In this document: positions 15,308-62,048 of the stretch, piece by piece
Position numbering within the stretch: the first letter of the stretch is position 1
Layout: each line of letters starts with the position of its first letter
Origin: Bilabrum cf. latius
Taxonomy: Eukaryota
Reading direction: 5' to 3'
DNA: 64,000 nucleotides
Assembly: GCA_965178125.1 (NCBI GenBank)
Contig: OZ237760.1
Location: 310,001-374,000 of the forward strand
Translations under genes and position numbers: made by a program
The notes under the pieces: model-generated
Told to the model about the DNA's origin: nothing
Databases searched by the model: none
Seen by the model: the letters and a program-made list of their open reading frames with translations, nothing else

Positions 15308-17073
15308 TCAGTGCATACCCACGGGCTTCTCCTCCTGCCCCATCTTGTATAGGTAGCTCAGATGCGCGCCCAGGGCATCCAGAAAGCCGCTCCTGCAGTT
15401 GTACGGCAGGCCCTTCCTCTCGCAGTGTTCCTTGACGATGGGCGCGATGGCGGGGTAGTGGTACTGGGAGACCCCAGGGAACAAGTGGTGCTCGATCTGG
15501 TAGTTGAGCGCGCCGCACATGTAGTCGGGGATGGCCCCGCCCACGTAGTTCACCGACGTGCGGACCTGGTTCTCCGCCCACTCAACGGCTATTTTCTTGG
15601 CCTTGGGGTCCTCCACCGGCTCCTGGTTCAGCGGGAAATCCGCGTCCACGCTCACGTGCGACACCTGGAAGTTCAGGGCGAGGTACCACCCGGTGGTCGC
15701 CTCCGCGATGGCAAAGAGGGTCCAGTACCTCGCCGGGTCCACGCCCAGCACTGCCAGCGGGAGGGCGATCCTCCACGCGGCCCACACCGCCTTGGTGACC
15801 CAGACCCTCCACACGGGCGAGTCGAACCAGTTCACCCGAATGGGCCCGTCCCTCTGCTTCATGTACACCTCAAAGATGTCGTCATACCTCATCTTCATGC
15901 CCAGGGTCGAGTACAGCAGAGGCAGGTAGATCCACTGCCAGCGGTACACCCATCCCCACGCCTGCCTGTCCACCAACCGCCTCGCGTCTCCGTCCGTCTG
16001 CGGCAGATCAGGGTCGGCCTCGAATAGGTTCGTGTAGACGTGGTGCCCTACCACGTGCTGGTGCTGCCAAGAGAGGATGGAGGAACCCGCGATCCAGTCC
16101 ATAGGCACCCTCCCCGCCCACTGCCAGAGGGACTGGCTGCGTCCGAAGGCGGTGTGGCAGCTGTCGTGCATCACGTGGAGAAGAGGCATGGCCTGCGACC
16201 AGCCGAAGGCCAGGGCCGCGAGGACCAGCACGACCCACGAGTCGGTCGCGAAGGGCCCGATGCCGTTCATGGTGCAGTAGGCCCAAGCCATGGTGAGAGC
16301 GACGGGCACCATCCGCCACGCGCCGTACCGCCAGTCCTTAGGGTCCAGCTTGTGCTTTTCAAAGTAAGCCGCCACGTCGTCGGAAAGCTCCTTGTAGAAG
16401 CCAGAGTCCTCCTTAAACACGGGAAACTCGCTCTCTGTGCATGGGCCGAGCTTCTCCCAGCCCGCAAAGTACTTGTCTACCTTCTCCATCGAGAACGGGT
16501 GGTACATGGCCACCAGGTCGGTCACGTCGCGTCCGGCACAAAGGAGAATTTGCTCCGTGCCACCGGGATGGCGGTCCACCCAAGCTGCGGGGTGAAGACG
16601 CGCGGGCTAGGGCGGGAAAGGACGTGCTCTGATGAAAACCGCAGCGTGCTTCCCTGCCTGCCGGCAGAAGATGCCCTCTTGCCCACATGGTACTAGCGGT
16701 TCAAGCAAAGCAGAGGAGAGATAGCACGATCGACAACTCACAGGTTACGTCGTACACATACCCGCGATAAACGACCCAGGCATCGCCTTTCTTATTGTGC
16801 TTTGCGACCTCCTCCCATGAGAAGCCCTTCGACCCAGATGCCTTGGCTTGGGTAGGCCCGTTATTGGAGCTTAGATCGAGGAGATCGGTCTCAACTGCGA
16901 TACTGGTGATGGTGGCCCTAGTTAGCTAGAAATGATCAATTGCGCAGATGATGCGAAGTATATTTGTCTCGATGTGGGACCCGTCGCAAATCCGACAATG
17001 TAGCCGCAATATGTGCGTATATGCCAATTAAGCCCACGCAGTACTGACCTTCATTTAGCTTATCTTTGGGCAT
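15308..17073 (-). CDS. Front-end (cytochrome b5-fused) fatty acid desaturase, delta-5-like
   Basis: HPGG haem motif; His boxes HDSCH, HVVGHH and QIEHHLFP; upstream exon FSWEEVAKHN..DAWVV..VYDVT with GTGAGT donor. Start at 17073 is tentative. Confidence 0.92.
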
Positions 17074-18308: not shown

Positions 18309-19859
18309 TCACGGCCCCTTGCAGCAGTCCCGGCGATGCCCATTGCGAGCTGGCAGGTGATGTGTCCTTGTCCTTTTCTCTAGCCTTACTACTCCCACCA
18401 TTCTTCTACGCCTTCTTCTCCTCCTCTTCCTACTCCTTTCTCTCCTTCTCCTCCTTGTCTTTCTTCTCCTTTTCCCTCCGCTTTGTCTCTGACTCTTCCA
18501 GCGTCTCGCAGCCGAACATTCGCCTCGCGTCCTCGCACACCATGCAGCCCACCACGGGATCCACCACGGACTTTGCGATGTCCCACCTCTGGAGGCCCTT
18601 GAAGTACTCGGTCTGCCCCACCCGGAGCCCCCCAGAGGTCCAGTTGATCACGCCCGCTTCCCCCTGCATCACCATGTTCACCCACACATTCACAGACATC
18701 AGCGATCCGATCGCGCAGACGACCACCCACGACCCGACGTCCATTGTGCCGGTGGCTACGTCCTTGGGTACGAAGGCCAGGCTATCGTAGGATCGGATCA
18801 ACGAGGGAACAAGAAGCTCTTTGGTCCTCTATTCGAGGGCGCCCAGAAAGGCGTACAGCTGCTTCTTCCCGAGGCCAGCTGTGGGTTTCGCTGATTGCGC
18901 GGCGCCGCTGGAAGATGCAGCGCCCGAGGGCTCGGTGGAGGAAGAGGTGGCCGAGGCTTGGGAGGCGGGTCGCTTGTAGCCGTCCAAAGGCTTTCCCACT
19001 GCGACGCCCACGTCCCTAAGGCACTCCCGGACCAGCCCCGGCATGGATGGGTGGTCCATCCGGTTGACTCTGCGGAGCTCCTCGAGTATTTCGGACTCGG
19101 ACACAGTGGGCTCGACCGGTTCCGCAGGTTCCGCGGCGCCGCTGCCGGTGCTCGCCTTCGCGAGCTGCTCCTCTTTCTGCTCCAGCAGCCGCGGGACGGA
19201 CATCGGGGGCTCCAGGAAATTGTTGCATGCCCAGCATGGCTGCGTCGGTGCGCCGTGAAACACGTCGCATTGGAACTGCATGCTGTACGTCGACGCGGTC
19301 ACGAACGGGATGCGCAGCGACTTTGCCAGTGCCATTATGGCGTAGTCCATCCATCCGCCGTAGTCTGCGCCTTGGAACAGAGCTGTGCATTTCTCGGCCT
19401 CGGACACGACGTCGCCCCAGTGCGTGATCGCGTTGCAGTGCATCGTTTTGACCGTGGTGCGCACTGCAACCTCGCGCACAGATGCGGCGAGCGCCTCAAC
19501 CTTTCGCATCCCAACCTAGGACGTTTTAAACATAATCTGCCGGTTGAGGTTCGATGCGTCCACTACATCCATATCTAGAAGGGTAATGTGTCCCACACCC
19601 ATCCTGACAAGAGCCATGGCAAACGAGTTGCCAATCCCCCCAGAACCTACGATAAACACCCTTTGCTTCTTCATAGCATCCTGCGAGGACATTTTCAACA
19701 TAGTTAGGAAGATTCTATATCTATCTACTCGCCCCCGTTACGCAAGTATCGCTGCGATCGATGCGTTCTTACGTCGTTCCAGCCGTCAACTGCAACCTGC
19801 CTGCTAAATACGTCCTCAGGTTTCAGATCGGCTGCAGTGGGTCGTGAGCTGGCAGCCAT
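18309..19859 (-). CDS. ThiF/MoeB/E1-like adenylyltransferase
   Basis: FSRQ, VFIVGSGGIGN, LLDMDVVDASNLNRQ, CWAC and CMVC zinc pairs. One 5' intron; TAGs at 19516, 18829, 18430 and in the K/E tail; TGA at 18309. Confidence 0.85.
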
Positions 19860-20008: not shown

Positions 20009-22384
20009 ATGGAAGACAGCAAAGTGCGCAGAGCAGACTTTCTCATACCGCTCGTCCTGGACGCAGCAACGAAGCACGCTGGATGTGATCCTGCTACGCT
20101 TGGCAGGATTGAAGCCATTGATGAAGCGGGAGCGGCTTCGCTTCAGAGTGGTGCACAGCTCGCCATAGTGGCAGCCACAGGAACAGCTGGTCATGACACT
20201 ATCCGAATTGTCACCCCAGCTGGGTGCGATGACAAGATTGTGCAGGCAGCCAAGAGGGTCGAAGAGGCTTGCTATTCACTGCGAATACTCTCCAGAGTGG
20301 GCTGTGGGCTTTCTCCGTACGAGTTTCAAATGCCCCAGCTCAGTGATTCCGACCTATGTTTGTATTTTGGGACAAGAAAGGTTCAATTTAGCACTGTGGG
20401 GGGGGAATGCCTGGAGTATGCCCCCGGCGGCCTGGCGCAGCCGCCCAACACGGACGCCGAGGCGATCAAGGCGAGCACGGCTCGAATGGACGGATCCGGG
20501 GCTCTCGGCAAGGAGTACGAGCACGTCTATGAGCCTGTGCCACCGGCAGCAGACATCGTATGGGCGAAGACAGGCGACGCAGCGAAAGCGAGCGCGAGCC
20601 CGTCCATGCCTGCCATCCTCCGTAGACCGCTCCTCAAGACGGCAGACGGGAGCGACGCGGAAGGCATCCGGTCCGGGGGCCGCAGCGCAATCATCTGGGA
20701 TACCAGCAGCAGGACCGCCTATCGCCTCAAGGGCTGCGGCAACTACTGCAACGGCAGCTACGGCGGGAAGAGCCTGCAGTTCCCCTACCCTGGCCTGCCC
20801 GTGGCCCCCATGGAGAAGATGAACCTGGCGACGTTCGAAACCGACGCAGAGGCGGTGGAGGTGCGGGGCTGCGCGTTCCCTCACACGGCCACGCGGGAGC
20901 TGTACATGTCCACGAGGGTGGAGTGGTGCCTCGAGGGCACGGGAATCCCTTGTGCCCTGCAGCCCGCTGCGGTGTGGGTCTACGACATCGGGGACGAGGA
21001 ACCGCTGCCCAAGCTAAAGAAGGCATGTGCCGTGTGCAAGACTCTGGGTGAGAGGCGACTCGCTGCGCACGCCATACCTGGAATCGAAATGCTCGTCCTG
21101 GAGCACCTGCTCCCGTTCCGAGGAGGCAGACGAGCATCACCAGCGTTGCCGCCAAGTACGGCTCCCTCGCTCGACTAGATCCGCGCTCTCCTGCACGAAA
21201 AGAGAAGGGTGCCCACGACGGCGAGAGAATACGACGTGGATGCGGACGGGATGGTGGACAAAGAGTATCCATGCGTGCCAACGACTCTCGCGGTGGCTGG
21301 GCCCGAGGACAAGCACGGGCCTGTGTGCAACCCATGCCTGGTGGAGCAAACAGCAGCATCGGCGTGGGAACACCTTCGAGAATCCCTGCCGGATAAAGGC
21401 TTAGGTCCTGCTTCGAGCCGCGATGGTGGAGGTACGTCTACCAACGATGCGGATCGAAAACCTGCCGCAGGCGGCCCGGCAGCGTCTGGGGCCGGTACCG
21501 TAAGCAATGATGCGGCTGAGACGGCCGAGCCTGACGCAGCCTTCAAGGAGCGCTGGACGCGGGCTTGCAAATGCCTTGCATCCACCATGGAGGAAGCGAG
21601 GACTGCCCTCAGGTCGCACGGATCAGCAGGTGGCGGCGGAGCTGCGGCGGGCGCAGTAGCAGCAGCGAAGTCTTCCTCACCGGGCATCGTGGCATTCTCG
21701 CTGTGCTACCGCCTGGGTTACGAATCTGGCCTGGTGCGCCGGTCTATGACAGCAGCTGACATCTCCTGGGGAAACTACATGGACCACATCCTAGAGCCGC
21801 ACAACAACTGCCACCCCAACAACTTTGTGCTGCTGCCGCCGTGCAGAGGGGCCGGGTATCTGGCTGCAATCCAAGGAACTGAGGATGCAAGCAAGCCTAC
21901 TGGATCACCAAGCAGTGCTGCGACAGGCGCATCATCTTCGGCTGCAGCCCCAGCCTCAGCCCCAGGTCCCAACGCCCTGGACTGCACCGCCCTGGTGGCT
22001 CCCCTCGACCTCGACATGGCATTCGAGAGGCGGGCCTACGTGCTCAACGCCACGCGCGCGCCCGACGACGAAGAGTTCTCGGCCTCGCTTCGCCGTGAGG
22101 AGGTGGAACTGCGGAAGAACCTGGCGGGGAACAACTCTTCCACGGGTTTGATGGGGATGGCGACGGCCGGGGAGGGTCCAGAGGGCGAGGACGAGGATAC
22201 GAAGCGAGCCCGTGCAGAGTACAACGCAGCCATGCGGATCCTGTTGCGGGACTGCTACGTCAGTGGGTATGACGACGCGATGTGTGGCAGGGCCTCGGTG
22301 CTGCCGCTCGCTCCAGTGCTGGGATTTGCGCAGCGGGCCATGCTGGAGCTGTCCCTGGTGTTGTCGTCATCCAGAGTATCGTAA
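20009..22384 (+). CDS. Uncharacterised ~790-aa protein, possibly SelO-like kinase fold
   Basis: ORFs 20009-21178 and 21209-22384 are in frame across TAG 21176; ends TAA. Motifs SGGRSA, RLKGCG, RGCAF..TRELYM, HPNNF, PLDLD. Confidence 0.6.
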
Positions 22385-22732
22385 TGAAACAAATCCCATT
22401 CTTGTAGATAGGGCTATCCAAGGATAGAGCCAGTGTTGGTTGAAGGCGCGAATTCGTCCCCGGATGGTGGGTATTCGAGGGGTACAACGCGTGTATCGTC
22501 ACGATGTTATCGTGCACCTACTTATGCTGCTGGCAGTTTCGTAATAAGCTTGGACATGGAACATTGACATGCAAAGAGGGATGCGAGGTGAAACCATCGC
22601 GAGCATCACTCACAAAGCAACACCATAGCAGACGACAGCGTCACGACACACCGCAGTGGCAGACACTACTTCAGCACCAACGTGGCTCGTCCAGAATGGA
22701 GCCAAGCAGCAGCAGATCCATCGAGTGGTCAT

Positions 22733-33128: not shown

Positions 33129-35150
33129 TCAATAATCAAACTGCGAGGCCCACCTGGCCTCATGGTCCTCGATGGAATCGTCGGTAGGCACTGGTCCGAA
33201 CGGCGCCCAGTCGTCTCCCTTCTTGCCGTCGAAAGGAGATGAGCCTTTGCCGACGCCTTCCGAACCACCGGCGGAATCCACCCTAGAGCTCTCTCGCAGG
33301 TTCTAAGGGTCGAAGGAAGGATACGTGACGTCTGTGCGCCCGTAGTACACAGGCTGCCGCTGACCGCGGCCAGTCACGAACTGCCTAGAGCCCTCAATGT
33401 ACGGGTCGCTAAAGAAAGAAAAGTACTGCTTGCCCGTCTGCAGAAGCGTCTGCGCGAGTGCCAGCGCATTCTGTCCGTCTTTGGATGCTGCTTCAAGCCC
33501 CGACCGACCCCCCACCACGGTCAGATTTGCCGGGTACGCCTGCGCTCCCCCGGGGTAGGCAGGTACGCCCGCACCGGACAGGACGGGCAAGGCCGTCGGC
33601 AGCATGTTTGTTGTTTCGTTCGGGTCGTTCTTGAGGTCGAACAGCTCGTCGTAGCTGTTTTCCCTGTGGATCAGCTTGTACCCGCCCCCTCGGATCGCAC
33701 GCATCTCGCCGTATTCGTGGAATGTAAGCGAGTCTTCCGCGTCCAAGCCTAGCACGAGCAACTCGGAGTCGGAATCGGTCAGCGGCGCATTCTGCGATGA
33801 GGAAGACGCGCGGGAGGAATGCCTGAGCAGGCCACCGCCCGACACCGAGCGACTCTTCCTGATCCGATCCTTGATCCGATCCGCCTCCCCTGGGGAGAGC
33901 AGCAGCGAGCTGTAGTCCCGTCCCGCCACGTTGTCCTTCTTGGGGAACGACAGGCCGACGTATCCCAGCAGCGTGGTGGCAAAATCGACCACCATGACGG
34001 GTTCCTGCCTGGTGACGCCGCCCGCTATCGAGCCCGGGTGCATGATCATCAGCGGGATCTTTAGTGCGGTGTCGAAGGCGTTCAAGGGCCAGAAGCTGTT
34101 GCCCTTGCCCACGACCCCGTGGTGCGTGAGCGAAAAACCATGGTCCGACGCGAACGTGACCACCGTGTCATTTTCGATTCCGAGTGATCGGATCGAGTCG
34201 AGCACGGTGCCGATCGCGGTGTCCATCGCCTCGGTGGCGGCGTAGTACCCCGCCCAGCACTGCCTGTCGGTGAGACAGCCTTCCGTGAGCCCGCTCGTGT
34301 GGTAGGCGTAAGGGTACTCCTTCAGCCGAGGCAGGTCTCGGAACGTCGCGTTAAGGTACTTGTCGCAGAGGCCCTTGGGGTGCATCGAGTCGCACCGTCC
34401 GTCGGGGCCCGTGTAGGGGGAGTGCGGGGAGGTGAAGTGGAGGAGGTGCAGCCACGGTGTAGAGGGGTCCTTGGCGTTGTATCCTCTGATCGCGGAGATG
34501 GCGTCTTCTGCGAGCACGTCTGTGATGTACACATCGTGCAGAGTGTCGCACGTTCCGTTGATCACCAGCGGGGGGTCTCTGTAGCTCCCGCCTCCAGATT
34601 GGTGCACGAACCAGTGGTCTTCGAATCCGTGCTGGTTTGTCTCATTCTGGGCGCCAGTGTGGAGCTTGCCACTGATACCGCAAAAGTAGCCAGCTTTTTT
34701 GAATTCGTCGGAGTACCAGGCTTCTTGCGAGGTGGGCATGTACTGTATAGCAGGCTAGTTGTTGCACCCGTTGCCACCCGAGATCCAGTCCTCCACGCCG
34801 TGCTGGGTTGGGAGCCTCCCCGTCAGGTAGCTAGCGCGAGACGCGCTGCACACAGGGGTATTGCAAACCGCGTTTGTGAACCGATGTCCGTTCGCCGCAA
34901 TGCTGTCCAGCACTGGAGTCGTTAGCTCAGAGTTACCGTACGCCGACGTCGCCCACTGTCCCATGTCATCTGCGCGTATTGGTGCGGCAATGGCAGGGGA
35001 GGTAATAATATACGGTACCTGAAACACGTAGCTATTCCACACTGCTGACGCTTAACACTTACCGGCTAGAATCACGAGTACGTTTGGCTTCTTGCCGGCC
35101 GTTGCACGGTTCGCAACAGCCAGCAGCAATGCTGCCATCATGGACCGCAT
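33129..35150 (-). CDS. Secreted formylglycine-dependent sulfatase
   Basis: Signal peptide, KPNVLVILA|DDMG, CSASRASYLTGR, GKLH, SDHG, GK, ELFDLKNDPNETTN. TAG at 34755 and 33303; TGA at 33129. Confidence 0.9.
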
Positions 35151-41633: not shown

Positions 41634-41669
41634 GAGAGAGAGAGAGAGAGAGAAGGACAGAGAGAGAGA
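41634..41669. repeat. (GA)n microsatellite
   Basis: Directly visible. Confidence 0.9.
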
Positions 41670-41717
41670 AAGGCCGCAAGCGCCGCGCATCAGGCTCTGG
41701 TCCAGCTACCGCACCAA

Positions 41718-43735: not shown

Positions 43736-46700
43736 ATGATGAGGACGCTGGCACTGTGCTCGTCCAAACGTCGCAGCCAAATGCATCTATTCAAATCGAT
43801 GGTACGCCTACCACGGTCTGTAGGTGTCGTGACGAAGGCCAGTTGGAACATGCTACGTGTGAGCCACTCATTTCGATTCGATTCGCTCGTTCGCGGCACC
43901 CGAGACGAAGCCTTTGAGAATCTGAACCCGTTTTAAGACTGATCTGTATCTCGCGTTACCCGCTTTCCTCCTGCAGGGCGGCAACAATCTGAGCGTCTGT
44001 TCACTTCCTCGAAGTGGCTCTGCTTAGCGCCGGTCAACAGCAGTGATCATGTACCATCCAAGGCAGACTAAGTTGATATGGAGACCAGGGCAGTCGCTGG
44101 CACAAGCGAGACTTCTTTCAGGGGAACCTGATAGCCATAAGGATGTGCCTTCCCTTCAGTTCGTGTGGAAACAGAAGATGAACGCTGATGCTATGGTGGT
44201 TGCATGGCAGCCGCTTTCCAAATCGACCCCGCTCAGCGCAACCATTAGGCGTGTACAGGTGATTCAGCAAGCCCAGCAGGATGGAATAGTCATGGCTAAT
44301 GCCTTGGACGCCGGTACAGTCAAGCAACTTGAATCAATCTCGAAGGACTCACCAACATCGAGCATCAGGGCGAAGCTGGAGCTTCCGAGGACCTAGCTTG
44401 AATCTGCAGAGCGCCTTCACGAGGTGGGGCTGCTTTCGGAGCTTGGGTCCGATGTCGTCCTGGAGTATCTCAGGAGCGACAAGGCACAGGCAGACCTGGA
44501 CAGCTTCAACGTGCAGGCCACCATGCTTTCCAAAGCAGAACAAGATAGGATGTTGGAGGAGGAGATGCGGATACATGAGCTCAACAAAGACCTAGAGCGG
44601 ATGGGATTGCCCCACTCCGACTACCTCTACAAAGCCAAAAAAGTGGTGGTTCCCGACATTGAGAAATTCGTCACTGATCTCAGTGAGCTTGCGGAGAAGC
44701 AGCATTTTGAGATCCCGCCGCCGTTCAAGGGCGCGACTCTGCTCGATGCCGTCCGAGAGCGCACATAGCGAGTTGTGGACGCGACCGAATCGTGGATGGC
44801 CGATGCCGTGCTGGATTGTCTTCGGTTGATCGGAGACGCAGTCGTCCACGTGCATGCTTCCACCGGACGAAGCTTGGATATGATCGCCGAGACCTACGTC
44901 TTGCCAATTGTGGACTCCGGGTTCAGGACGCAAAGGGAAAGGCTCCTGCATCGACTTCTCTACGAAGCGTTCAAGTCGAGGCTGAACATTACCCGTGGTG
45001 GGGTTGTGCTGGGATATCAAGGCTTTGGCAAGTCTCAGCTGGTGCGCCAGCTGGTGCTTGGCAAGGAGCTGTGGCAGTGGACCACAGACAACCGCAAAGG
45101 CCATGTCGGGATGTATGTCCATAACCCGAACGAATTGGACGATGCGCTTCGATTGGGATGCCCCCCGGCACTCCTGGCTGCAGGTCTGTGCAACGCGGGA
45201 GTGATTGAACGCGAGAAAGCACCAGCCTGGACGAAGTCTGGCGAGTCGGGATTGGATTCTTTTGACGTAGCGGGATGGGTGTATAAAAACGATGTTGATG
45301 CCCTGCTGGTGATCGACGAGGCGCAGCAGGCGAAGGTAGATCCTGCTGGTGAGGCAGTGACCAAGGCATTGATCGCGCGGTCGAGGAAGTTCTGGGACTC
45401 CCTTGATGCATGCTGTCAGAATCCGCACTTTCCGATGACGGTGATCACGGGCACAGGGTCAGAGGTAGCGTACTTGGTGTATGATCGGCCTCGAGGCGTG
45501 AAATGGAAGATGCAGAAGGACAAGTTCCACATGCACTGGCTCGACTACGAGTACTCTGAGGTGGAGATTTGCCTCATGCTGACCCGGCAGGGTAAGATGA
45601 CACAGCTGCCCAAGGATGGCATGCGCTGGACACCGTCGTACTCTCCGGACGATAGGCCGCTCGATATTGAGTCACTGACGGCCATTGTGGACCAGGTTTA
45701 TCTAGAGGACGTGACTTTGGCCCTTGCGTTGGCTGTTGCGAGAGCTTCTGGATGCGACCCCGCGTCAGACTCGAAGTCAAGCAGCGCAGAGCCAGTAGTG
45801 GATAGCCACTGGATTGAGACGGGGCAGGTGGTGCATCCCAGGCTCGAGCACGTAGTGGAGGGAATCCAGGCCGATGCCAGGGGGGACCTCGAGGCGTGGC
45901 AGCAAATCAAGGTCAAGCCCGATCGGCTGACCTTGCAGGCTGCCACTGAGGCGCTGAAAGACGAACGGGTGCTGCATGCAGCCTATGCATCACGATCCAA
46001 GATCCTGCGACGTGTATGGCAGACCGGCATGACAGCCCGCAGCTTGAGCGGGATTAATGCGGAAGACCAGCAGATGAACAAGAAACTGCGAGTCTGGTAT
46101 GAGTCCATGGCTAGGGACACTGACGGGTTCCAGCAGATCATGCTAGCGCTCCTAGAATGTATGCGCGACGAGGACTCGGACTGGCAGCGTGATGCTTTCG
46201 CTAACCCTCTCAAGCCACCAAAACCTGTCGCGGTTGAGGCGCTGGTAGAGAAGTTCGAGCTTATGCACCCTGACGTCAAAGTTGAGGATACTGACCAGTT
46301 CGAACAAAAGCTTAGCGAGTGGAGGCTAAAGCAGCTTGTGGCCTACCGGGCGGCATCGGAGCAAGCTGGCTTTGAAGGCAGAAACCTGCCTGCTACAGTC
46401 GGTTTCATGAGCAGTATGTTTGCTTTCCTGGCGTTGCGGTGGAGCCTGACGCAAGGTCTGTTCGTGACGAGGCGGGAGTTCTGGGCGATCCACAAGCAGA
46501 CGGGCGACCTTGGTAAAGACTACGAGCTAGTGGTGGCCGAGTCTTTGCACCGCAACTTCGTGTCCAAGGTGCTGGCCAAGGAGCTCATGCCGTCTGTCCC
46601 TCGGTACCTATGGGAGAAAGAGGACGGTGCTTTAAAGGAGGATCTTGTGAAACACGACAGGACGCAGGTGTTTGAAAGCGGGAAAATCTCGATCCAGCTG

Positions 46701-47519
46701 ACTCAGACCAATTGGGGCTAGAACCCGAGCAGGGAGGAGCTCCTCGGTCGAGTGCTGAAGGAGGCGCCTGACAAATATGGAGGAGATCTGGTGGTGATCC
46801 TCGAAGATACATAGGAGCGGGATCCGCAGAAGTACCACTTGATTCGGATGCAGGTCAAGGCGGGCGGTGTCGACAGCAAAATCGAGCCGCGGGGATTGAA
46901 CGGTTTCTTGTCTCGCGATAAGGTGCAGACTGTCCTGCAGCTGTACGCCGGAGCCCTTGGTGTGCGACCTGACCAGGTTGTCATGCATAGACTGCTGGTG
47001 ACTCCGAAAGAGCTGGAACCCAGTATAACTGATCTGTTTCCCAAGCGTAATCGCAGCGAAGACCGTGAGATGGATTCAGGCATTGCAGAGCCGAGCACCT
47101 CTGAGCCTGTCGGGGCCGATGACCAAGGCAAGGCAGAGTCGGACATGGATGGTACCTACGACAGGTCGAACCTCTTCTACCTCGATCACAACGACTACCA
47201 CGAGTTTCTGTTCGCGGATGCGCGGTTGCTCTCTGCGAGGATCTGGGCCAACTCTGCGAGCAAGTTCGAGGAGAGGCAGCGGCGGAGGAAGCTAGCAGAA
47301 GAGCTCGCCAATAGCTTGAGACGCTTAGGCTTGTTGAACGATTCGCGCAAGGTCAAAGCGGGCGAGCCTTCCAACATGGAGAATTGGTCGGAGCAATTCG
47401 CAATAGATGGCACGTCTGAGGACCTTGGTAAAGGCCGAGGCCGAGGCCTAGGCAAGGGAAAGGGCCGAGGCAAGGGAAAAGACCTGAGCGAGGCCCGCGC
47501 GGCCAGCTCGGAAGATTGA
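43736..47519 (+). CDS. P-loop NTPase + PD-(D/E)xK nuclease protein, copy 2, ~1,221 aa
   Basis: Exon 43736-43858, intron 43859-43976, exon 43977-47519. Same TAG positions as copy 1; differences are substitutions plus in-frame 3-nt and 21-nt indels. Confidence 0.75.
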
Positions 47520-49734: not shown

Positions 49735-49766
<32 letters not shown>

Positions 49767-52470
49767 CACCGGATACGGGTCCCTCGGCGCCTTTGACCAC
49801 CTCCAGCACCCCCCGCTCCCCCTGCTCCCCCTCGGGCACGCGCTCCGTCACCGCCACGAGGCCAAGGTCGTGTGCCAGCACGTCCACGTCGTTGTTGGGC
49901 GGGATGGCGAACGCGATCTTGAACTTCCTGGGCAGGTATGTCTTCCCGTAGATGGGCTCCTCCTCCAGCGGCGCCCCCCCACCCACTTGCTTCTTGTCCA
50001 GCCACACCTCGTGGTAGGCTCCGCTCCTGGGGGTCAGGTGGTCGCTCACCGACTGCACGCAGCGGAGCACCTCGTGGTACACGCCGTCGTCCGGAGCCGA
50101 AGATCCGAGCATCGCATTGCGGTTGACATCACCGCATGCAGCGAGGCTGTCCATGAGCGCAGCGTTGAAGGCACGCACCGTCGCCTTGAGCTCCTTCTTC
50201 ACTACACCGTGCAGCTGGTACGCCTGACGGGTGGTCAGCTTGAGAGTGCCGTTACCCCTGGTCTGGGCCAGTTCGTCCATGACCACCCACTGCGCAGGGG
50301 TAGAGATACCCCCCGGCAGCCTCACTCGGATCATGAATGAATACGCGGGCTCCAAACCGGCTCGCATGCGGGCGGGCGCAATGTCCCTATCGTGCTACAT
50401 GTAGATCCCATGAAACTTGGAGATCTTGGTGTCCTCGAATGGGATGGCCCCCGTGCTCTCATCCAGCAGAGAGGAGGCAAGAGTCCCCCTCAGGTGGTTG
50501 GAGTCCTCCTTGATGTCGTCGTCTGGACGGTGAGCTGCCGCAGGGGCGGTATCCCCCTCCCCACTCTGTTCCCTGTCAGAGTCCTTCCCCACCCCTAGAG
50601 ACTCCCACAGGGAAGGCGCCCACTGGCGGTACCCGTCCTCGAACCCGTCGTCGTCCTGGTCATCGCCCAGGCCGATGGGGGTCAGGGGGTCCGCGCCCAG
50701 CTGGGCCAGCCGGGCGTACACGTCCTTCGAGGCCTTGTTGTAGAGGTGCTTCTGGTCCTCCCTGGGCCAGTAGTGGCTGTCCCCGAGTCCGAACACCGTG
50801 AACTTGACTGAGTCGTCTAGCTGCGGCATGTCCGTTGACTGCAGGCCCTTCCAGAACTCGCGGCAGTTGGCCGGCACGTCGCCCTGGCCGGCCGTGGACA
50901 CGATAACCGCCACGCGGGGAGTGGCGGTCAGCCTCCGGGGGTCGCACTCGTCAGCCGCCTTGCACTCCGCCTTGAGGCCCCTCTTCTTTGCCTCACTCGT
51001 CACACGCTTGGCCACGGCAGAGGCGTTGCCGCCGTCGCTGCCGTAGAGCACCAGCAGCGACTGGTCCCCGCCCTCCCCGTCTCCCGAATCGCCCGCCTTT
51101 CCGGCTCCGAGTCGAGACGCCATCCGGCCGAAGGATCGGATGAGGCTCTCCCGGCCCAGAGCGGCGGCGCTGGCAGCGGCTGGGTCAGACGAGGTGGATG
51201 CGGAACCGGACCCGCCGGCCCCTGCTCCCTGCCCCACCTAGGCTCCGCTGCGGCGGGTCATGAGCGACAGCACCGTTTCCTGCTCCGCGAATGCGCGCAG
51301 CTGGGCGCTGACGTGTGACGAGTGCACCTCGAGCGCTCCGTCGGGGGTACCCTCCCGCCTCGGGTCCCACGCGAACAGAGGCCACGCCCCCGATGTGACG
51401 AGTGCGCCCACGGCACCCCCAAACGGTCCCCGACTGGCTCCGGCGCTGCTCACCAGCGTCGCGCCATCCCCACCTTCGCTTGTTCCCTGGATTGTTCCCT
51501 CGGACGCGTGGTCCTCCACGGCGCCCTCTGCCCCCGCCGACGCGCCGGCTAGCACCACCAGCACGGCGGGCCCCTCAAAGCTGCCCGCCCGCCTGGCAAG
51601 CTCCACCAAGTGACTCTCCCCGCCCTCGGTCGCCGCGGCGGACGGAACCGGTTCCGCAGCGACAAGCGCCGCGGCGCCGACGAAGGCCGAGCCGAACTGC
51701 AGCGCGAGAGCGGCGAGGGCCTTGGAGCGGCCTGCCTCGCTCTTCAGCGGGAGGCGAGCATCGGTAACGGATGCTGCTCGCACGGATTCGGGCAGCGCGG
51801 CTTCCACTGCGGCTTTCTGCGCTGCCTTGCGGCCCGCACGGCTGGCGGGGTTTGCGCCGTCTGCCTGCTGCGCGGCCTGCTTGCCCTTCGCCTTGGTTTT
51901 CGCGGCGAGTTCACGCTGTTCCTTTTGCCGAGTGAGCGTACGGAGAGCGGCAAATGCATCTTGCTCGCCCGCTCTGGCTGCGACGACCAGCACGGCTTTT
52001 CTGCCGGAGCGAAGCAGCGAGCGAGCGCCAGACAGCTGCTCGCCGAGCGCCTGCTCGCTCCCTCCCACGACGATGAAACGGCCGCCGGCGGAGCCTGCCG
52101 CCCCGGTGGCATCCTGCGCAGCAATCATCCCTAGACCAGATTCGGCCGTGCGGGCCTCGCTCACGGACGCTGCGGGGAGTGACCGGCGGATGACGTCCGC
52201 GACGCATCTCGCAAGACCCAGACGGGCGGGAACGTCAGGCGCCCGGCTCTCCGATTCCCCCACCAGACTAGGACCAGCAGATATGCTCTGGTGTGCCTGA
52301 TGTGCTTGTTCGTGTGAATGCTGCACATCGTTCGAGGCAGACTTGGAGACTTGCTGGTCGACGGGGCGTGTTGACGATGCGTCAGCACCGGCCCCAAGCG
52401 CAATGGCACCGGCCGCGGCAACTGCAGCGACAGCCGCGCCGGCGAGTGCAGCCCTAGCATTATCAGCCAT
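47884..52470 (-). CDS. MET5: Assimilatory sulfite reductase beta (hemoprotein) subunit, Met5-like fusion with flavodoxin domain
   Basis: LYGSDGGNA, STAGQG, FGLGDSHYW flavodoxin; KFHGIYM*HDRD, TTRQ, LPRKFK, CVALPTC, SGCPNGC. TAGs at 51238, 50395 and 48874; TGA stop. Confidence 0.92.
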
Positions 52471-54215
52471 AGTTGAGTTTGACTGCGACAGAAAAGTTTC
52501 CAGGTGAGGGGAGACTTGGTGCTGTGGGACTGCTATGACGCGCATGGCTCGAGGCGGTGCTATTGGCATAACCGACTCTCTCCACGCCGCGCGACAAAGT
52601 TGCGCGATATTGCTATCACACAAACTAATACGAATATGGGCTGGTAGTACCTGGGTTTTAAATGGCTTACATCAACTTCTAAAGCGGCGTGCAAGTGTGT
52701 TTCTTGTGTCGGGATCATGCATTGCGTTTCATGTTGGATGGTGCATCGCACTGAGCGTCGAAACGCACCGTTCGATGCAACTGCTTGCGGCAAAATCTGG
52801 CGTGGTGGCACACGAACCAAAGTTGGCTGCAATAATTAATCCTATTGCATCTTTTCGAGCATGCATACCATGTATTTCAAGCTGGCAGGTCTGCTAGAAG
52901 TGCACCGTACTCGCAGTGTGCGACCACTGGCATCCTGTGCGACATGCCAATGACATTCGCGGTGGAACTTGTAATCGGCAGCCACGCTTTTCACGCGAGG
53001 CAAAAGCAAGATAGCCTTTGAATAATGGGCTGTGAATGTATCGACTGTAGTTGGTATGGCTCTGTGCCTTGGGTCGACGGCCCGCTTTAAGCTGTCCTCG
53101 TGAAGCTCCTTTTGACAAGCTTGGATTGCAGTTCACAGACATCTGTTTTGCAATTCGTATGTAGTTTGTGTCAAGACTTTGGATGCGAGCGGTCAAACCG
53201 TAGTAGGCGGCTGGCCTCCACAGGACGGACTGGCAGCACCCTTGCTGCATTCCTGTCCGAGGCACACCTGGTGGGCCACGTGCAGCGAGGTGTGTAGCTT
53301 CTCCGCGCACCTGTCAAAGTAGCCCTCGCCTAGTGCACAGACTGGTCCGGTGGCTCGGCTTCCGCTACCCAGAGTGATTGTCTTATATCGGTCAGCGTAG
53401 CGTTGCGTGACAAACAATGTATGAATCATCTTCTTCAATGCTGGTCAACGGCTACAACTAGACTATCACACACGGGACCGACACACGCCCCGTGGGTGCA
53501 CAGCCGCCCCAGCTGGCAGTGGCGCGCAGTAGTACTAGTAGTTCCGGCATGCGGGTGGGTGGGTCATGCGAGCAGCAGGCTCTGGTCACCGGCCACGTCG
53601 GCTCTAACAACCACTCGCATGTGCGCGAATAGTACCGCACGTCGCTGCATTTCTGCACCATCAGGCAACACAAATCGAGAATGGTCACCTCTCAGTCCCA
53701 GTCCCAGTCCCAGTCTTGTTCAGTCAGCGACTAAACGAGACAGCAGAGCAAAGGGCACCTTCGGCCCCCGCATTTACCATCCCTGTCCTGCCAGCATCCC
53801 AAACAGACTTGCGCAAGTAGCAACAGCGGTCTGAATCGCTACCTCCACTGCCATGCCGGCGCCATCATCCTTTCCTGGCTTATCTGGTCGATCAGCAGAG
53901 GAGCTGCAGCAACCTGGGATGTGGGTGCACTGCCCTGCACCGGCAGGCGCTCGCTCCTCGTGGCGATGCTGGCGCAGATGCGCCCAAGTGAACCTGAAAT
54001 CAATGACATCGCGTGCATCGCGAAAACCATCGCTGCCATTTTTTGGTATTTGACTCCTGCCTCGCTGCCAGCCACTGCAACTCCTGCCTCGCTGCACTGC
54101 CACTGCCACTGCGCTTTAGTATCCATGCGAGAGGGGTGCACGGCCCGCGGTGCACGATTCACCGGCAGCTCTGGATATCATCCACCGCATTCCAAGTCAA
54201 AACTTGATAGCATGG

Positions 54216-54702
54216 TCAGGAGCCAGCAGCTCCACCTCCAGCCGAGCCGGCCTCGCCGCCGTCCGAGTGCCGCACAAGTTGCGATACCCTGGCCATGATG
54301 GGATCATGTGATGCGCTGGGATCTTGGCCTCGTGCTGGCAGTTCTAGGACAGTTGGCAATGGTTTGGAATGCCGCGTGATTTGTGGTCGAACCAAGTCAG
54401 CAATATCCTACGTGACAACGATTACGGCCAGGTCATCGCGCCCTGCAAGCTCTGAGAATCGAGCGGCCAGCTCAGTCTTGCTTGTCTCTGCTTAGGTGAT
54501 ACAAAAAACATAGAATAGGCTACTACGATGCGCATAGACTGGCGTGACTGTCAGTGCGAGTAGACGAATCGCTCTTACTGGCATCAGCAACAACAAAAGT
54601 AGATCCTCTGGAATCCTTCTAACCGCACCCAGCCAATAGCATCCCAGACACAGTATCTTCATCACCTATTACAGCGACGCCCAATTCCGGAAGACCCGCC
54701 AT
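54216..54702 (-). CDS. ATP6V1F: V-type proton ATPase subunit F
   Basis: VAVIGDEDTVSGMLLAGCG*KD, intron, RDDLAVIVVT*DIADLVR...PTVLELP...DPIMARV. TAGs at 54619 and 54408; TGA stop. Confidence 0.9.
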
Positions 54703-54868
54703 TTGCCTGCAGTGAGCCTGCAGTGATTTCCGGCAATTGGCGCCGCGCACAAGCACTGGCGGCTCCGCAAGAACGAACCGAGCACTCCGGACTCTGAAAA
54801 AGTACACTGACACGTCCAAATAGTCTGCAACATAGCTTATGTTGTTCCAGTAGTGATATATATCTTCA

Positions 54869-56885
54869 ATGTCTTCGCGAGTCCAGCCATCTGACAGCAA
54901 GCTGCTGTCACAGCTACGCAAAAGCGCCATGCAGGAGAGCGAAGGCGCCCAGGGCAGCAAATCCGTTGCTCCACCAATCAAAACGACATTCTTGGCGTCA
55001 TAGAAGCGCCATGAAGAGGAAAAGGCTGCAAGAGCGGAGAAGCAGAAGCGGCGGCGGAAACAGGCAACTGCAGTAGCAGTAGCCGGGGGCGGTGCAGCGG
55101 GTGCGTTGGCTCTGCTTCCGTCGGGCGGGGCAGGCACCGAATCTAAAGCCGCCGGAACGCGAGTGCTCCCATCATCGGCGCCCACTAAACGGCAGAAAAA
55201 GGCAGCATCAGCTCGCCTGAAGCGCAAGAAGTTTGGCAGAGATGTCGAGCCAGTTAAGAAAGAGCTGGAAGCTGTCGCCAGAGGCGCCATCGCCGGCCTT
55301 GACGACCCCGTGAAACGAGGAGCTCTGGGCGAAAACGTGAGTGCCCCGAAATCGACGAAATCGAGCGGCATTACCGACCCAAAGAAGGGGTAGGGCACGG
55401 AGAAGCCAGAGGAGGGGACCGTAGCGGCTGCTCTGCAGGGCGAGCGTGAGGGCGATGTCAGCGAGAAGCTCGCAGAAACCGAAACTGCCAACCCGTTTTA
55501 CGTGCGATAGCACAACCTCCTGTGCAAGCTGCGAGATGGACACTTGCTAGGCGTGTTTGCGACAGATTTCGCCGACGACGGGAGGCACATCGCCTCCGCT
55601 TCGTTCGATGCCTCGGTGAACGTCTGGGACATCGACACGCAGCGCGTTCGGCGAAAATACAGGGGACATACCGGGCCAGTCACTTCGATTCGTTTCATTC
55701 CAACCGCTGGCAACGAGAGGCTGGCGACAGCATCGGAGGACGGGACCGTGAGGGTGTGGGACAAGAGGAGCGCCAGGACGCTCTACACGTTCCAAGGGCA
55801 GTTTGCGACCGCAGTGCGATCTGTGCGATGGTTTCCGAACGGAAAGCATCTCGTTGCATCCAGTGATGATGGGAACGTGATCGTGTGGGACGCTGAAGCA
55901 GCGGTGCTGACCGCCGACGACCCCACGCAAACGATGGACGACGTGACCGTTGCTCGCATTTTTGAGGCTCCGTTCACGACGGATGGGCACAAAGGATCGA
56001 TTAAAGCCCTCGAGGTCAGCATAGACGGGAGAACCTTCTATACTGGTGGCATCGATGGCACGGTTCGCCAGTGGAAACTGGACGCAGTGGCCGGAAAGAT
56101 CACCCTCCGTCGCAAAATGGAGGAAGCCAAAGGAGAAATCATGCAGGTGGCGGTCAACCCGGACGGGACTATGTTTGCCACTGCCTGCAGCGATAGTGCC
56201 GTGAGGGTGTACTCGTCCAGGACTGGCGCTTGCCTGCACACACTGACCGAGCATGCCGGGTGAGACAAGAACCCAGCTCTCGAGCAAGTGATCGCAACTG
56301 CCGCGCCGCGTTATGCAGCGAACCCGATAGACTCCGCAACGACTTCTCCATGCACGTTCTCGCCTGGAATCACGTCGCCAGCATGATTTCTCTTGATACT
56401 AGCTGGAGCGATGCAGGGTGCCCTCGTTTTCCCCATGCAAATCACCGCAGCCCAGTGTATACGGTGGCGTTCTCCCCAGAGGGGAACGGCAGGCGGCTCA
56501 TCTCTGGTGGGCACGACCTGAGTATCAACATATATATGACGAATACGGGAGAGCTGCAGGAGAGGCTGCAGCGCGTCCATCGCTCCTACATCATGGACTT
56601 GCGGTGGCGCAAGGACGCCCTCGTGTTCGCCTCGGCGTCTGGAGACAGGACCGTGGGACTCTGGAGGGGGCTGCCACGCACGTGGCGTGAATACGTGAGT
56701 ATAGACGAAATGGCCGCCTGCAATCGCCCTGGTCTCCTTGGCTCCAGGGGCGGAAGCTAAAGTAGGTACCGAGCACTGAAACTATGCCTTTTCTACTGGT
56801 AGCGCAGCTGGGCGACATGGCGTACGCGGGGTGGGTATGGACGAGCCAGTGCATAATGGAAATGTGCAGTGACGAAGACGATTGA
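54869..56885 (+). CDS. WD40-repeat protein with charged N-terminal extension
   Basis: Multiple GH...WD repeats; TAGs near 55001, 55391 and 55508; introns near 56260-56450 and 56695-56807; TGA at 56883. Confidence 0.85.
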
Positions 56886-57248
56886 GGTCTGCGCAGCGGC
56901 TGTCCTTGGGTTGACGTACCAAAGGACTGCAGCAAGTGCTGGGCATCAGCATCAGGCAGTCCTTTGGTGCGGTGCGGGTGCTGCAATGATGCAAGCTACG
57001 GCGGACTGTCTGAGAAACCTGCATATGCATCGATATTCTATTCAAATCACGGGCCGTAATTGCGACCCAAGACCTGATGCGATGCATCCGCAGGCACGAG
57101 ATCCTAGCGTCCCACCGCGAACGCATGGCCCTCCCACCCCCAACTCCAGAACTACCCCTGAAACCACAGACAGCAAGAATGATCTGCCTGTTGCATCCGA
57201 TAATCAGCGACGCTATGCCTAGCAGACGCCCTGAATGACTCGGTGCAT

Positions 57249-57866
57249 TTACCGGCGGCGCTTCCTCATCTTCTCCTCAAGGAGGGCCTTCACGTCGGGG
57301 ATGATGAAGGCGCGCATGATGCGCTCACGCACAGCCCCAGCGCTAAGAGTGCCACCGTAAGCACGAGACACGGTGCGCTCGTTCTTGTTCATCCGGCGAG
57401 CGGTCTTGCTGCGCACGGCACGCACCTGCGAATTCGGCTAGTTGCAACCCAAGAAGTTGAAGCTGGCGTGCGGATACAAGGGCTATCACGATTGCTTAGC
57501 ACCCATACTATTGTTATATAAAAACACAAACTCACGCCGAACAGCGGCACGCCAGTGTCGCCGCACTTGGCTACGTTGGTTGCCTTGGTCAGGTACTGCC
57601 TCACGAAGCGGCCACCTGTGCACACAGAGGGGAGTACCAAGGTACAAACTGGTATTTCAGAACTTGAAAAATTAACTGTGCGCTAGCCGTGGTGTTCAAT
57701 ACACATGAAACCAGCTATACCTGAGTTGCACTAGCTGTTGCAGGACCACTGCGGCCCAGTACATCCCTACAACTCTCTCACCCGGGGTCTTCACAACACG
57801 AGTCTTGTTAGACTTGGTGCGGTAGCTATGGCGGCGCCTGTATGTGGTCCTGACGTCCTTCACCAT
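57249..57866 (-). CDS. RPL34: 60S ribosomal protein L34 (eL34)
   Basis: [24 protein letters not shown]...KCGDTG...VSRAYGG...VRERIMRAF; two introns; ends TAA at 57249. Confidence 0.95.
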
Positions 57867-59512
57867 GCTGCAATCCTCCTTTATAGGTTCTATTGGCCTG
57901 GTTGGTGTGTGATCCGATCCTGCGGAACCATTGGCCGCGCAAAGTGGTCCACCGAGACTGTGTTGTACCAGCTGCTACAAAAGACCCAATCAAGCACTGC
58001 AAACATGAGCATGGCACGTTTTGCACGCGCAGCTTGTAGCATGAGTAAGTGTTCTATGTCCTTAGAGTTGGATTGACTGCTTGTAGGCTGTGAAAAACGC
58101 TGGCGTGCCCAGCTCGTTTTCCGGATGACCGAATCATGTCCTTGTCAAGCCTCCAGCTTGCCTTTCATGCCACTATGGATCCCATCGATGCTATATCTCA
58201 TTAATGGCGTTTATTTCGCTTTATGTTTGGATGTTTGAGACCCGAATATATCGAGAGCTTCTCGTTGACTACATGTCGCCGGTCCCTTGCTCGCAGCCCG
58301 CGCCACGTCTGCTCTCCCTCGGGCCCGGGTGGGTCTCGCCGTCCGTGCTATGTCTACGGAGGGGAAGACGCCTAAACAGATTCTTGCTGAGATGGAGGAG
58401 ACCGCCCACAAGCAGTGGATGTCGGAGTGAGTTCGTCGTCTGCACACTGTCAGTTAGGCCGATGCGGCAACGAGCCTTTCGATCAACGCTGCTTGCGCCA
58501 ACGGCTCGCCTGTATTTTATTCGCAGTGTGAAGACTTACCCCGTCAGGGAGATCTTGGAGCATGAGATGCATGCCACGCTGGAGTGGGTCTTGCCGTCGC
58601 CAATGCCTCAGCATTGCTTCGAGCAGTCCCCGATTGTCATTGAGGTCAAGAACAGGAACCCCGCCACCCAAGACGAGCACTGATAGGTTTGATTAAGTAC
58701 GCTGCCGTGTGTAGCGAGCAGGTGGAGTGATCTTCAGAGATGGTCTCAGGCGGTGGAAGCAGCGGCAGTGGCACTTTGATTAGTTGCTGCCCAGGCATGG
58801 GAAGAGACATGGTTCATTACTCGCAACTCACACATTATCTGTGCATACATAATGAGCAAGCAGCAAACATTTTGCTCTGAGAACTTCCCCGGACTCCCAG
58901 CTACCTGAGAGCTCCCAAGACCCATCGCAGCTCACAGGGCGCGCGTGCACTCGAGCTTCACTCACTACGATGCGTTCCATGCCGTGCCCACCACATCCTA
59001 CATCTAAAAGCTATCAACAGGCTGTTGAAAAATTGCGCCTGGGTCTAGCCTGTCCATGCATCGAGTGATTCAGGCCTGCCCACCTGCCTGTGGTGCGGGG
59101 CCACATGTGGTCACCTGCCACCGTGCCACTGGGCTGCCTTTGGTTCAGACCAGGACCAGATTTGGCCCGCGGTCTCAGTGCCTAGATCTTAATCTAAAGC
59201 CCTTGGCACGGCGAGCTTGCACCCCCATGCATTTGCACAGGCGGGCAAAACGACTAGAATCGATCGGCCTGACCCTAGTGTCAGCTGCAGAGGTTGGTGA
59301 CGACCTGTCCGTCCCGCACGGTTGACCCTCTGATCGCAGTGGAACGCGGCTAGCGACCGCTCGCAAAATCATCGATCAAACAGCCGCAGCACTCCTGACC
59401 AACTGCCCTGCTGGGCGACCATCGAAGAGCATCATCGAAAGGCATCATCGAGAGCCGGTCCACTCGTGTGCGAAGCATGCCATGGCCCCTCCAGGGTGCA
59501 ATGCACTGCATT

Positions 59513-60363
59513 TCACGTGGACTTCATGCCCCCCATGAAAGTGCGAGGATCGGGCGCCGACCCGTTGAACTCCGCGTTGCTAAAGTCGAAGCCGGGGTGC
59601 TCTGCTTGGAACCGCTCCAGCATGAGCTTCTTCTGCATCTCCATGGCGCCCGCCTCGTCGAGCTGAGGGGGAAATCGTTTGGAAGTAGAGCTCGTTCAAA
59701 TCAATATGCGTTGTGGTAAGGACTGTTTGCGAAAGGGGCGTGTATAGCAGAGGCGCGCTCACGTGGCCGTGGCTCTTGAAGACGCTTCTCCACGTCTCGC
59801 CCGGGGCTGCTTTCACCATCGTCACGGACAGCTCTTCTCCATCTGCGGAATTCATAGGACTAGGTAGCACATACATAATGATATCTGCGGCGCTCTAGTA
59901 CGCCAAAACTTCCGCAGCACCCAATAACATACCCATTGTCCACAAGCTCTCGTCTTCGTTGATCGTGCTGGCGAGCTCTTCATCCAAGAAAGGGGCGTTG
60001 CCTTTCAGGCCGATTGAGAACCTATCTGTACTGATAGTCACTTCAAGGTCCTTGGCTCGCACACCTGGTGGAGGTTTCAAGAACAGGTTGATATCTTCCA
60101 AAGTCTGTGACCATTCATACACCTTCTTGCCTGCGATACTTCTAATTCGACAGCCACTTCAGGACATGGCGTTGTGTTGTCTGTTATATATAGCAGGTGC
60201 CAAATCGCTTACCTTGGTGAGCGAACACGTGTCGGCCCTCCTCTGATGGCTCTAAGTCCGGTGCAGCTGCAACTGCGGCCCCTTCCTCTACCCCGACGCC
60301 CTTTGATGCGGGTTCAGCGGCTGGACTGGCATCGGTACTGGATTTATCTGACGCAGCAGCCAT
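59513..60363 (-). CDS. NudC/CS-domain co-chaperone (NudCD2-like)
   Basis: [46 protein letters not shown]; three introns; TGA stop. Confidence 0.88.
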
Positions 60364-60872
60364 TCTTGCACTACTGCAACGAAAACCAACCGTTAAGGCA
60401 AATCTGTCAACCTTGCCGCGTGGCGCATTAAAAAGAGAGTGAGGTGCAATCTAAGCAGTTGCCGGAAGACCCATTGCTCTCGTACAGGCCATGAGGGACT
60501 CGTGCTCAGAGCAGCAGCGACCCAGTTTCCGAATGGTTTTCACATTCAATGACCCGCCACGTGGTAGGAGCGGTTAGCTCCAGTGGACTGGCATCACGCA
60601 GCGATGTCTGTGCCACAGACTCTGTGGCAGGTGCAGCGTCCCAGTGCTGCTGGTGTTCGTGTACCATCGATGCGTGCATGAGCTCCGTCCGGATGCTATT
60701 AAAGGGCAACACATGCGTGACCGGGACTTTGACTGCTACCCGTACATTCTAGCATGCTTGCGGCAGATAGGCGGGTTTACGTATTTACCGTTTGCCTCCT
60801 TATTCTGCACGTTACAATAAGCAACTGCTCGTTTTGCTGTTGACACGAATTACTTTCGATCTGGTGCAAAAA

Positions 60873-61817
60873 ATGGCATAGTACGGTGACGCTACGTGAG
60901 AAATTATCAACTTATCTGTACTGGCCCTAAAGGCTTTTTATTCTGCTTACACATTTTCGAGTTTCTTGATAGTACATTTCACGTTTCGATCTCCGAATCG
61001 ATCGCAGGTACTGGGAGGAGAGATACACGAAGTGAGTCCTAAATTTCCGCCTCCTAATTTGACAATAAAATGCTACATCCATGGGCCAGGCGATTAATCG
61101 CTCGTTCGCGAATTAGGCTCGACTTCCAACTCCATTCTTGCGAGTGTTGGAGGCTTCAGTTGCATTTATCTTAGGATTTGGGTATAATTGGATTCTTAAT
61201 TGCATGTGATAGCTATCATTTCTATTGTGCTGTTTGGCGCGCGCAGGGATGCCATGGAGCCGTTCGACTGGTACCAGCGGTACAGCGGACTGAAGGACCT
61301 TCTCAGCAAGTACATGAAGAAATCGGACTACATCATGCATGCAGGGGCAGGCAATTCTCGAATGCCCGCCGAAATGCTCGAGGACGGCTACGCGAACCAC
61401 GTGTGCATCGATGTCTCGAAGGCTTGCGTGGACGTGATGGCTGAGCAGCACAAGGAGAAGCGAGGCATCGAGTGGCGAGTCATGGACGTGCTGGCGCTTG
61501 ATTTCCCGGCGAGCACATTTGATGTCGTTTTGGACAAGGGGACGCTCGACTCCATCCTATGCGGAGAGAATTCCACGGCCAACGCCGCCAAGACACTCGC
61601 TGGCATCAGCAGGATCCTCAAACCGACGGGCACTTACATCGCGGTAAGCTATGGCACGCCAGAGGCTAGGCTCACGTACCTGGAAAATGACGCGTACGGG
61701 TGGAACGTGGTGGTGCACACGGTAGCCAAGCCCACAGTCAGTGCAGCGGCCGCGTCTGCCGAGGCGTCTGATGCAACTGCTGTGCACTACGTGTACGTTT
61801 GCACAAAGGGAGACTGA
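60873..61817 (+). CDS. Class I SAM methyltransferase, EEF1AKMT4/METTL13-N family
   Basis: Exons give MA*YGDAT|YWEERYTK|DAMEPFDWYQRY; GAGNSR; DVVLDKGTLDSILCG. Third codon is TAG (60879); TGA stop. Confidence 0.9.
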
Positions 61818-62048
61818 AAGGCGTCTGATGCAACTGCTGTGCACTACGTGTACGTTTGCACAAAGGGAGACTGAAAGGCGTCTGATGCAACTGCTGTGCA
61901 CTACGTGTACGTTTGCACAAAGGGAGACTGAAAGGCGTCTGATGCAACTGCTGTGCACTACGTGTACGTTTGCACAAAGGGAGACTGAAAGGCGTCTGAT
62001 GCAACTGCTGTGCACTACGTGTACGTTTGCACAAAGGGAGACTGAAAG
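61762..62048 (+). repeat. 57-bp unit x5 containing the last codons and TGA of the methyltransferase gene
   Basis: AGGCGTCTGATGCAAC...GGGAGACTGAA at 61762, 61819, 61876, 61933 and 61990. Confidence 0.97.

Follow-up and report, generated by a model that had tools for sequence, protein, structure and literature searches.

The genes in the window, by which we mean the whole 64,000-nucleotide stretch analyzed here, very probably follow a nuclear code equal to NCBI translation table 15, in which UAG encodes glutamine and UAA and UGA are stop codons. The window is eukaryotic nuclear DNA with a GC content of 56-68% and spliceosomal introns. The first-pass annotation, made from the sequence alone, had proposed that UAG was reassigned while UAA and UGA were kept as terminators, and the gene models support this proposal, with 61 in-frame TAG against 0 TAA and 0 TGA, and with TAG at conserved glutamine sites.

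In-frame TAG codons and transcript-like contigs

The 61 in-frame TAG were found in 15,648 codons of 21 gene models, are distributed over 17 of them with up to 11 in one gene, and represent about 10% of the glutamine codons of these models (CAG 450, CAA 122). Open reading frames (ORFs) delimited by TAA or TGA and with TAG inside reach 2007, 1595, and 1470 codons, and the one with 2007 codons is broken by nothing except four TAG. According to Pfam, the ORFs contain ion channel, flavodoxin plus sulfite reductase, protein kinase, sulfatase, desaturase, ThiF, and WD40 domains. Raw ORF-length statistics were rejected as an argument, since in DNA of 60% GC dropping TGA lengthens the ORFs more than dropping TAG. 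ORF length being a weak proof in GC-rich DNA, independent evidence was sought.

Contigs of run X1 show a flat depth of 12-37 over the stretch, whereas in runs X5, X6, and X8 the depth ranges between 0.4 and 1303 and the contigs skip segments bounded by GT..AG which are not skipped in X1. Because these joints are missing in X1 and the depth is very uneven, X5, X6, and X8 were taken as probably transcript-derived, the kind of run given by a program guess being "RNA?", and "probably DNA" for X5. Stretches without contig cover were left out of this transcript-like evidence. Ten TAG codons, in three genes, show neither a joint nor a base change in the splice-bearing contigs of X5, X6, and X8, which rules out introns and editing as their origin. 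The contig joints also define the models of the V-ATPase subunit F, a gene of 77 amino acids, a NudC-like gene and a methyltransferase, and the introns have 82-252 nt and GT..AG ends.

The WD40 gene is located on the forward strand with exons at 54869-56258, 56450-56694, and 56808-56882, followed by a TGA at 56883-56885, according to contig joints and gene models. It contains three in-frame TAG (55001, 55391, and 55508), and X6 record 18 covers the region 54828-55935 with 0 other letters. Contig joints show the introns 56259-56449 and 56695-56807; since the first of them begins there, the TGA at 56261 which ends the ORF is not the real stop of the gene.

Paralogue B (43926..47516, forward strand, 1197 codons) shows in-frame TAG at 44025, 44394, 44766, 46719, and 46812, and the five are common to its tandem paralogue A (37758-41330), from which it is separated by 29 synonymous and 39 non-synonymous differences. 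Contigs are unbroken over 44001-46578 and 46633-47400 of paralogue B, and no listed difference falls on any TAG.

Both paralogues are part of a tandem segmental duplication (37758-43900 and 43926-48726), which holds two copies of a gene of 1191 and 1197 codons, identical at 1151 of 1190 residues. The 3' end of the sulfite reductase is partially copied in the duplication as well, 42166-43005 compared to 47887-48726, with 266 of 278 residues identical, and the copy at 42166-43005 is probably a truncated relic. Furthermore, two adjacent long low-complexity genes at the start of the window (2-3013 and 3169-6819) have a common conserved N-terminal region, and the metagenome contig L001 described below has a gene related to them (8594-9778). 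No Pfam match was obtained for any of the three, and no other gene of the window has as many in-frame TAG as the one at 3169-6819, with 11.

TAG at glutamine positions

L001 is a metagenome contig of 9.8 kb and 54% GC, syntenic with the region 15.3-19.7 kb of the window, to which it is 70-78% identical in DNA sequence, and its orthologues were compared with the window genes together with database homologues and solved structures. The sulfite reductase TAG (50395..50397, reverse strand), at residue 759 of the ORF 47887-52671, lies in an ungapped conserved motif where 119 of 120 homologues, and CysI of E. coli, have glutamine and the remaining one leucine. In the V-ATPase subunit F, the exon 2 TAG (54408..54410, reverse strand) corresponds to the glutamine of a motif conserved in the three solved chains shown, and it is covered by X5 contig record 11 with 0 other letters; the second TAG of this gene, in exon 1 (54619..54621, reverse strand), is opposite glutamic acid in the three solved chains shown. 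The ThiF-family gene (18232-19737), assigned by Pfam and solved-structure alignments, has a TAG at residue 74 (19516..19518, reverse strand) which is CAA in the L001 orthologue, and seven codons upstream the window shows CAG and L001 shows TAG. The same exchange, CAG in the window and TAG in L001, is found in a desaturase motif whose flanking residues agree at 16 of 17 positions.

Altogether, the partner of TAG is glutamine, CAG or CAA in five of the five well-conserved sites tested, and none of them is a conserved serine or leucine column. In weakly conserved regions, TAG is found opposite E, R, K, V, M, L, and C. On these alignments UAG is read as glutamine. Apart from its TAG, the sulfite reductase (47887-52671) shows a flavodoxin domain and long alanine- and glycine-rich inserts, and no pyruvate-oxidoreductase-like N-terminal domain was found in it by Pfam.

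UAA and UGA as terminators

The 15,648 codons contain 0 in-frame TAA and 0 in-frame TGA, counts which are partly built in since most models are delimited by TAA and TGA. If TAA was used like TAG, between 6.5 and 24 in-frame TAA would be expected, 16.5 according to the CAA:CAG ratio (P ~7e-8) and 6.5 according to the TTA:TTG ratio (P ~0.0015). The A:G ratios of the codon pairs are 0.27 for CAA:CAG, 0.39 for GAA:GAG, 0.38 for AAA:AAG, and 0.11 for TTA:TTG.

As a control, all stop triplets in the six frames were examined with a codon-usage score which ignores stops, and those whose flanks of 40 codons are open and score as coding were counted. Both flanks scored as coding around 22 TAG, one TAA (of 415 TAA triplets) and three TGA, and at a score threshold of 8 around 14 TAG, 0 TAA, and 0 TGA. 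The sole TAA with two coding flanks is antisense to a gene. Another TAA, at 35052..35054 on the reverse strand, was considered as a possible sense codon and rejected, as it lies inside the first intron of the sulfatase gene. This intron (34950-35063) is in frame with its flanking exons, and introns of this kind can mimic read-through codons in ORF-based scans. The triplets with only one coding flank show an asymmetry for TGA (27 upstream-only vs. 9 downstream-only), and for TAA they are five and five, a test without power. The frequent in-frame TAA that would contradict the first-pass annotation were not found, either in the window models (0) or as TAA joining two coding stretches (0), and TAG ends 0 of 22 models.

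The 3' end is visible in 22 models, of which 20 terminate in TGA, two in TAA and none in TAG; a 23rd model runs off the window and was left out of this tally. The 20 TGA-ended models are close to the "about 19" counted previously. Two of the TGA stops are at, or within one codon of, the TGA of the L001 orthologue, with conserved C-termini, and in the front-end desaturase (TGA at 15308..15310, reverse strand) the L001 orthologue has its TGA at the same codon. As stated before by the first-pass annotation, no gene needs TAG as terminator (0 of 22 models), although in two of them the tail after the last in-frame TAG is short: only 12 codons in the NEK kinase and only 18 in the ion channel, so that a TAG stop is conceivable in both. 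These tails score as coding, with 0.74 and 0.47 per codon, respectively. At the 3' end of the methyltransferase gene, five perfect tandem repeats of 57 bp (61762-62048) duplicate its last 18 codons and the TGA stop.

The two TAA-ended models are gene 20009 and RPL34. Gene 20009 (20009..22387, forward strand) has 791 codons with one in-frame TAG, and its TAA at 22382-22384 is followed by a TGA at 22385-22387. It does end in TAA, as had been reported, yet its value as proof of UAA termination is rejected: with the TGA directly after, the end of the protein is the same, plus or minus one residue, either way, and the gene is uninformative about TAA. Therefore, the TAA of RPL34 is the sole discriminating TAA terminator in the window.

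The ribosomal protein gene RPL34

RPL34 is located on the reverse strand, and its coding region comprises three exons (57782-57866, 57536-57615, and 57252-57425) according to splice joints and eL34 matches. The spliced gene starts with an ATG at 57866, encodes 113 amino acid residues without in-frame TAG, and ends at the TAA in 57249..57251, with the next in-frame stop, a TGA, 14 codons downstream. Its introns of 166 and 110 nt have GT..AG ends and match the contig joints 57612>57779 and 57422>57533, both present in run X5, with X6 and X8 showing just the second one. Neither of these joints is present in run X1, where one contig is unbroken through 49773-61791. The segment 56808-57422, which includes the TAA, is covered by X5 contig record 13 with 0 other letters.

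The solved eL34 chains mostly have 104-129 amino acids, and exon 3 matches residues ~56-110 in them; the alignment and the chain lengths indicate that 113 residues is the expected length, although by length alone a protein of 128 residues, ending at the downstream TGA, is also compatible. The stretch beyond the TAA has a coding score of -1.7, which is non-coding. The claim that RPL34 ends in TAA at its expected length is thereby sustained by the spliced model, the joints and the eL34 alignment, and support for UAA as a stop comes from this TAA, with its transcript-like contigs, and from two TAA-ended ORFs of L001.

RPL34 and the WD40 gene are convergent, with overlapping transcripts at 56500-57430, and a single high-depth contig extends from the 5' end of RPL34 across the last exons of the WD40 gene.

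Stop codons in the related contig L001

In L001, 1,533 codons contain eight in-frame TAG and 0 TAA. TAA ends two of the four ORFs of this contig judged to be coding, which is a small sample. Furthermore, the frame is open for more than 54 codons past one TAA, which counts against the reading of UAA as a stop, and the ThiF orthologue has a TGA seven codons after its TAA.

Alternative readings of the code

A code of the table 6 type, in which UAA and UAG both encode glutamine, UGA is the sole stop and TAA is rare as a consequence of the high GC content, is considered very unlikely. Under this code the RPL34 protein would be 15 residues longer, up to the TGA, and the product of gene 20009 longer by one, and the reading gains some ground from the TGA found soon after both TAA ends of the window (14 and 0 codons), from the TGA seven codons past the TAA in the L001 ThiF orthologue, and from the fact that UAR as glutamine is by far the commoner variant according to PMC5304391. 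However, it leaves the absence of in-frame TAA beside 61 TAG, when 6.5 to 24 would be expected, to be explained; furthermore, no TAA joins coding stretches once the antisense case and the intron are set aside, and the sequence after the RPL34 TAA does not score as coding (-1.7). In Condylostoma or Blastocrithidia a context-dependent meaning has been described for stop codons other than UAG, which could in the same way encode glutamine inside genes while terminating the translation of some mRNAs close to their 3' end. The short distances from the last TAG to the TGA in the NEK kinase (12 codons) and in the ion channel (18 codons) would suit such a code, which we regard as most improbable: a TAG stop is needed in 0 of 22 models, the two tails score 0.74 and 0.47 per codon, and TAA and TGA together account for 22 of 22 terminators, behaving as dedicated stops with 0 in frame.

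The TAG codons could also exist without a dedicated tRNA, as pseudogene lesions, unrecognized introns, sites edited to CAG or sites of low-level readthrough. The lack of a tRNA(CUA) gene in the window, L001, and L002 would agree with this explanation, which is nevertheless hardly credible for 61 TAG spread over 17 of 21 models with up to 11 per gene. Five of five TAG are kept between paralogues that have accumulated 29 synonymous and 39 non-synonymous codon differences, the TAG are unspliced and unchanged in the transcript-like contigs, and L001 uses TAG likewise. Finally, UAG might encode another amino acid, e.g., serine or leucine. TAG opposite E, R, K, V, M, L, and C in poorly conserved regions could be taken in this sense; against it, Q, CAG or CAA is found at five of five well-conserved sites, with leucine in one of the 120 homologues at the sulfite reductase site, and the probability of this assignment is negligible.

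Under table 15, the reading that we prefer, UAG would be decoded by a tRNA-Gln that carries the anticodon CUA and that, with its C34, would be unable to pair with the A of UAA, following the reasoning of PMC5304391. A tRNA with anticodon UUA would be absent, and eRF1 would have lost or weakened its recognition of UAG while keeping that of UAA and UGA. The eRF1 N-domain residues concerned with the third base of the stop codon are discussed in PMC5304391, in the GTS, NIKS, and YxCxxxF regions and at the equivalents of human T32 and L69. UGA is the usual terminator in the window, and UAA, rare in a genome of 60% GC, is used by the highly expressed RPL34. No tRNA genes were found within the window, L001 or L002, and no eRF1 gene within the window.

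Comparison with known genetic codes

Ciliate nuclear genomes are usually AT-rich and their introns very short, in contrast to the 56-68% GC and the introns of 82-252 nt with GT..AG ends of the window. UAG alone has been reassigned to glutamine in the ciliates Protocruzia tuzeti and some phyllopharyngeans, according to PMC11687900, and their code is table 15, as in the window, where both test genes are read correctly under this table. In the fornicate Iotanema spirale UAG also encodes glutamine, with UAA and UGA as stops and UAA as the primary one (PMC5304391). Its codon table equals that of the window, and so does the mechanism inferred for it, based on a tRNA-Gln(CUA) together with an eRF1 of weakened UAG recognition. 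However, UAA is the primary stop in Iotanema and TGA ends 20 of 22 models in the window organism. The latter is further distinguished by its GC content of 60% and by genes for an O2-dependent desaturase and for an assimilatory sulfite reductase.

Codes of the table 6 type are reported for hexamitid diplomonads, several ulvophyte green algae, oxymonads and many ciliates, and TAG and TAA both encode glutamine in Amoeboaphelidium protococcarum (PMC5304391, PMC6299283). The table 6 type codes share with the window UAG as glutamine and UGA as the main stop, and differ from it in that the window has 0 in-frame TAA in 15,648 codons and that TAA ends RPL34. UAG alone is reassigned, with UAA kept as a stop, in the rhizarian exLh, where it encodes leucine (PMC5304391), and in Scotinosphaera, where TAG encodes serine and TAA and TGA are stops (PMC8271138); both resemble the window in this respect, whereas the window shows glutamine at five of five conserved sites. 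The literature searched, supplements apart, names no GC-rich organism outside ciliates and fornicates with UAG as glutamine and UAA as a stop.

Coordinated changes of UAA and UAG amount to at least 13 cases according to PMC5304391, and since both codons nearly always change together, each case restricted to UAG tests how tRNA and eRF1 discriminate between them. The rarity of this uncoupling, pointed out in the first-pass annotation, agrees with the literature (PMC5304391, PMC11687900, PMC8271138), with a list of cases longer than the one given there. The study on Iotanema and the rhizarian (PMC5304391) stated that the reading of tRNA and eRF1 awaited genome sequences. The combination of genomic DNA, transcript-like data and one or more sequenced relatives would here give direct access to the predicted tRNA(CUA) gene and to the changes expected in eRF1. 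Furthermore, if the genome were annotated under the standard code or table 6, proteins would be cut short or wrongly extended, as 17 of 21 models in the window contain TAG.

Relatives and lineage placement

Homologues of the sulfite reductase belong to opisthokonts, with 52-61% identity, and in a tree of 46 rows the window sequence is on a long branch (1.01) and in no supported clade. Matches of the desaturase are mostly from stramenopiles, with ~50% identity, and those of the CFAP52-like protein, beyond close relatives, do not exceed ~54% across one third of the query, or ~40% across the greater part of the query. In these searches, identity to the nearest homologues beyond close relatives is no more than 40-61%, and none of them, with the sulfite reductase, the desaturase or the CFAP52-like protein, pointed to a relationship to fornicates. 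Close relatives known as proteins only include CFAP52-like sequences 94 and 77% identical and a desaturase 75% identical.

The group which contains L001 appears to be one of GC-rich flagellates. We tentatively suggest that the window organism, L001 and the relatives known as proteins may form an undescribed lineage outside ciliates and fornicates with its own uncoupling of UAG and UAA, although we hold this placement with somewhat less than even confidence; a lineage outside both groups would represent another independent uncoupling of the two codons.

A naturally TAG-free protein of the window gave a FAM210-like lead only, with a protein atlas score of 0.89. Between the FAM210-like gene and the desaturase, L001 has an extra 3.3 kb (3181-6490) in relation to the window, with an ORF that ends in TAA and shows a weak O-fucosyltransferase match (E 3e-5), below the Pfam cut-off. 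Finally, the ThiF-family protein of the window has a hydrophobic, tail-anchor-like C-terminal stretch (18232-18410) downstream of two TAG codons, whereas the orthologue in L001, terminated by a TAA, is 22 residues shorter at this end and lacks the tail-anchor-like stretch.
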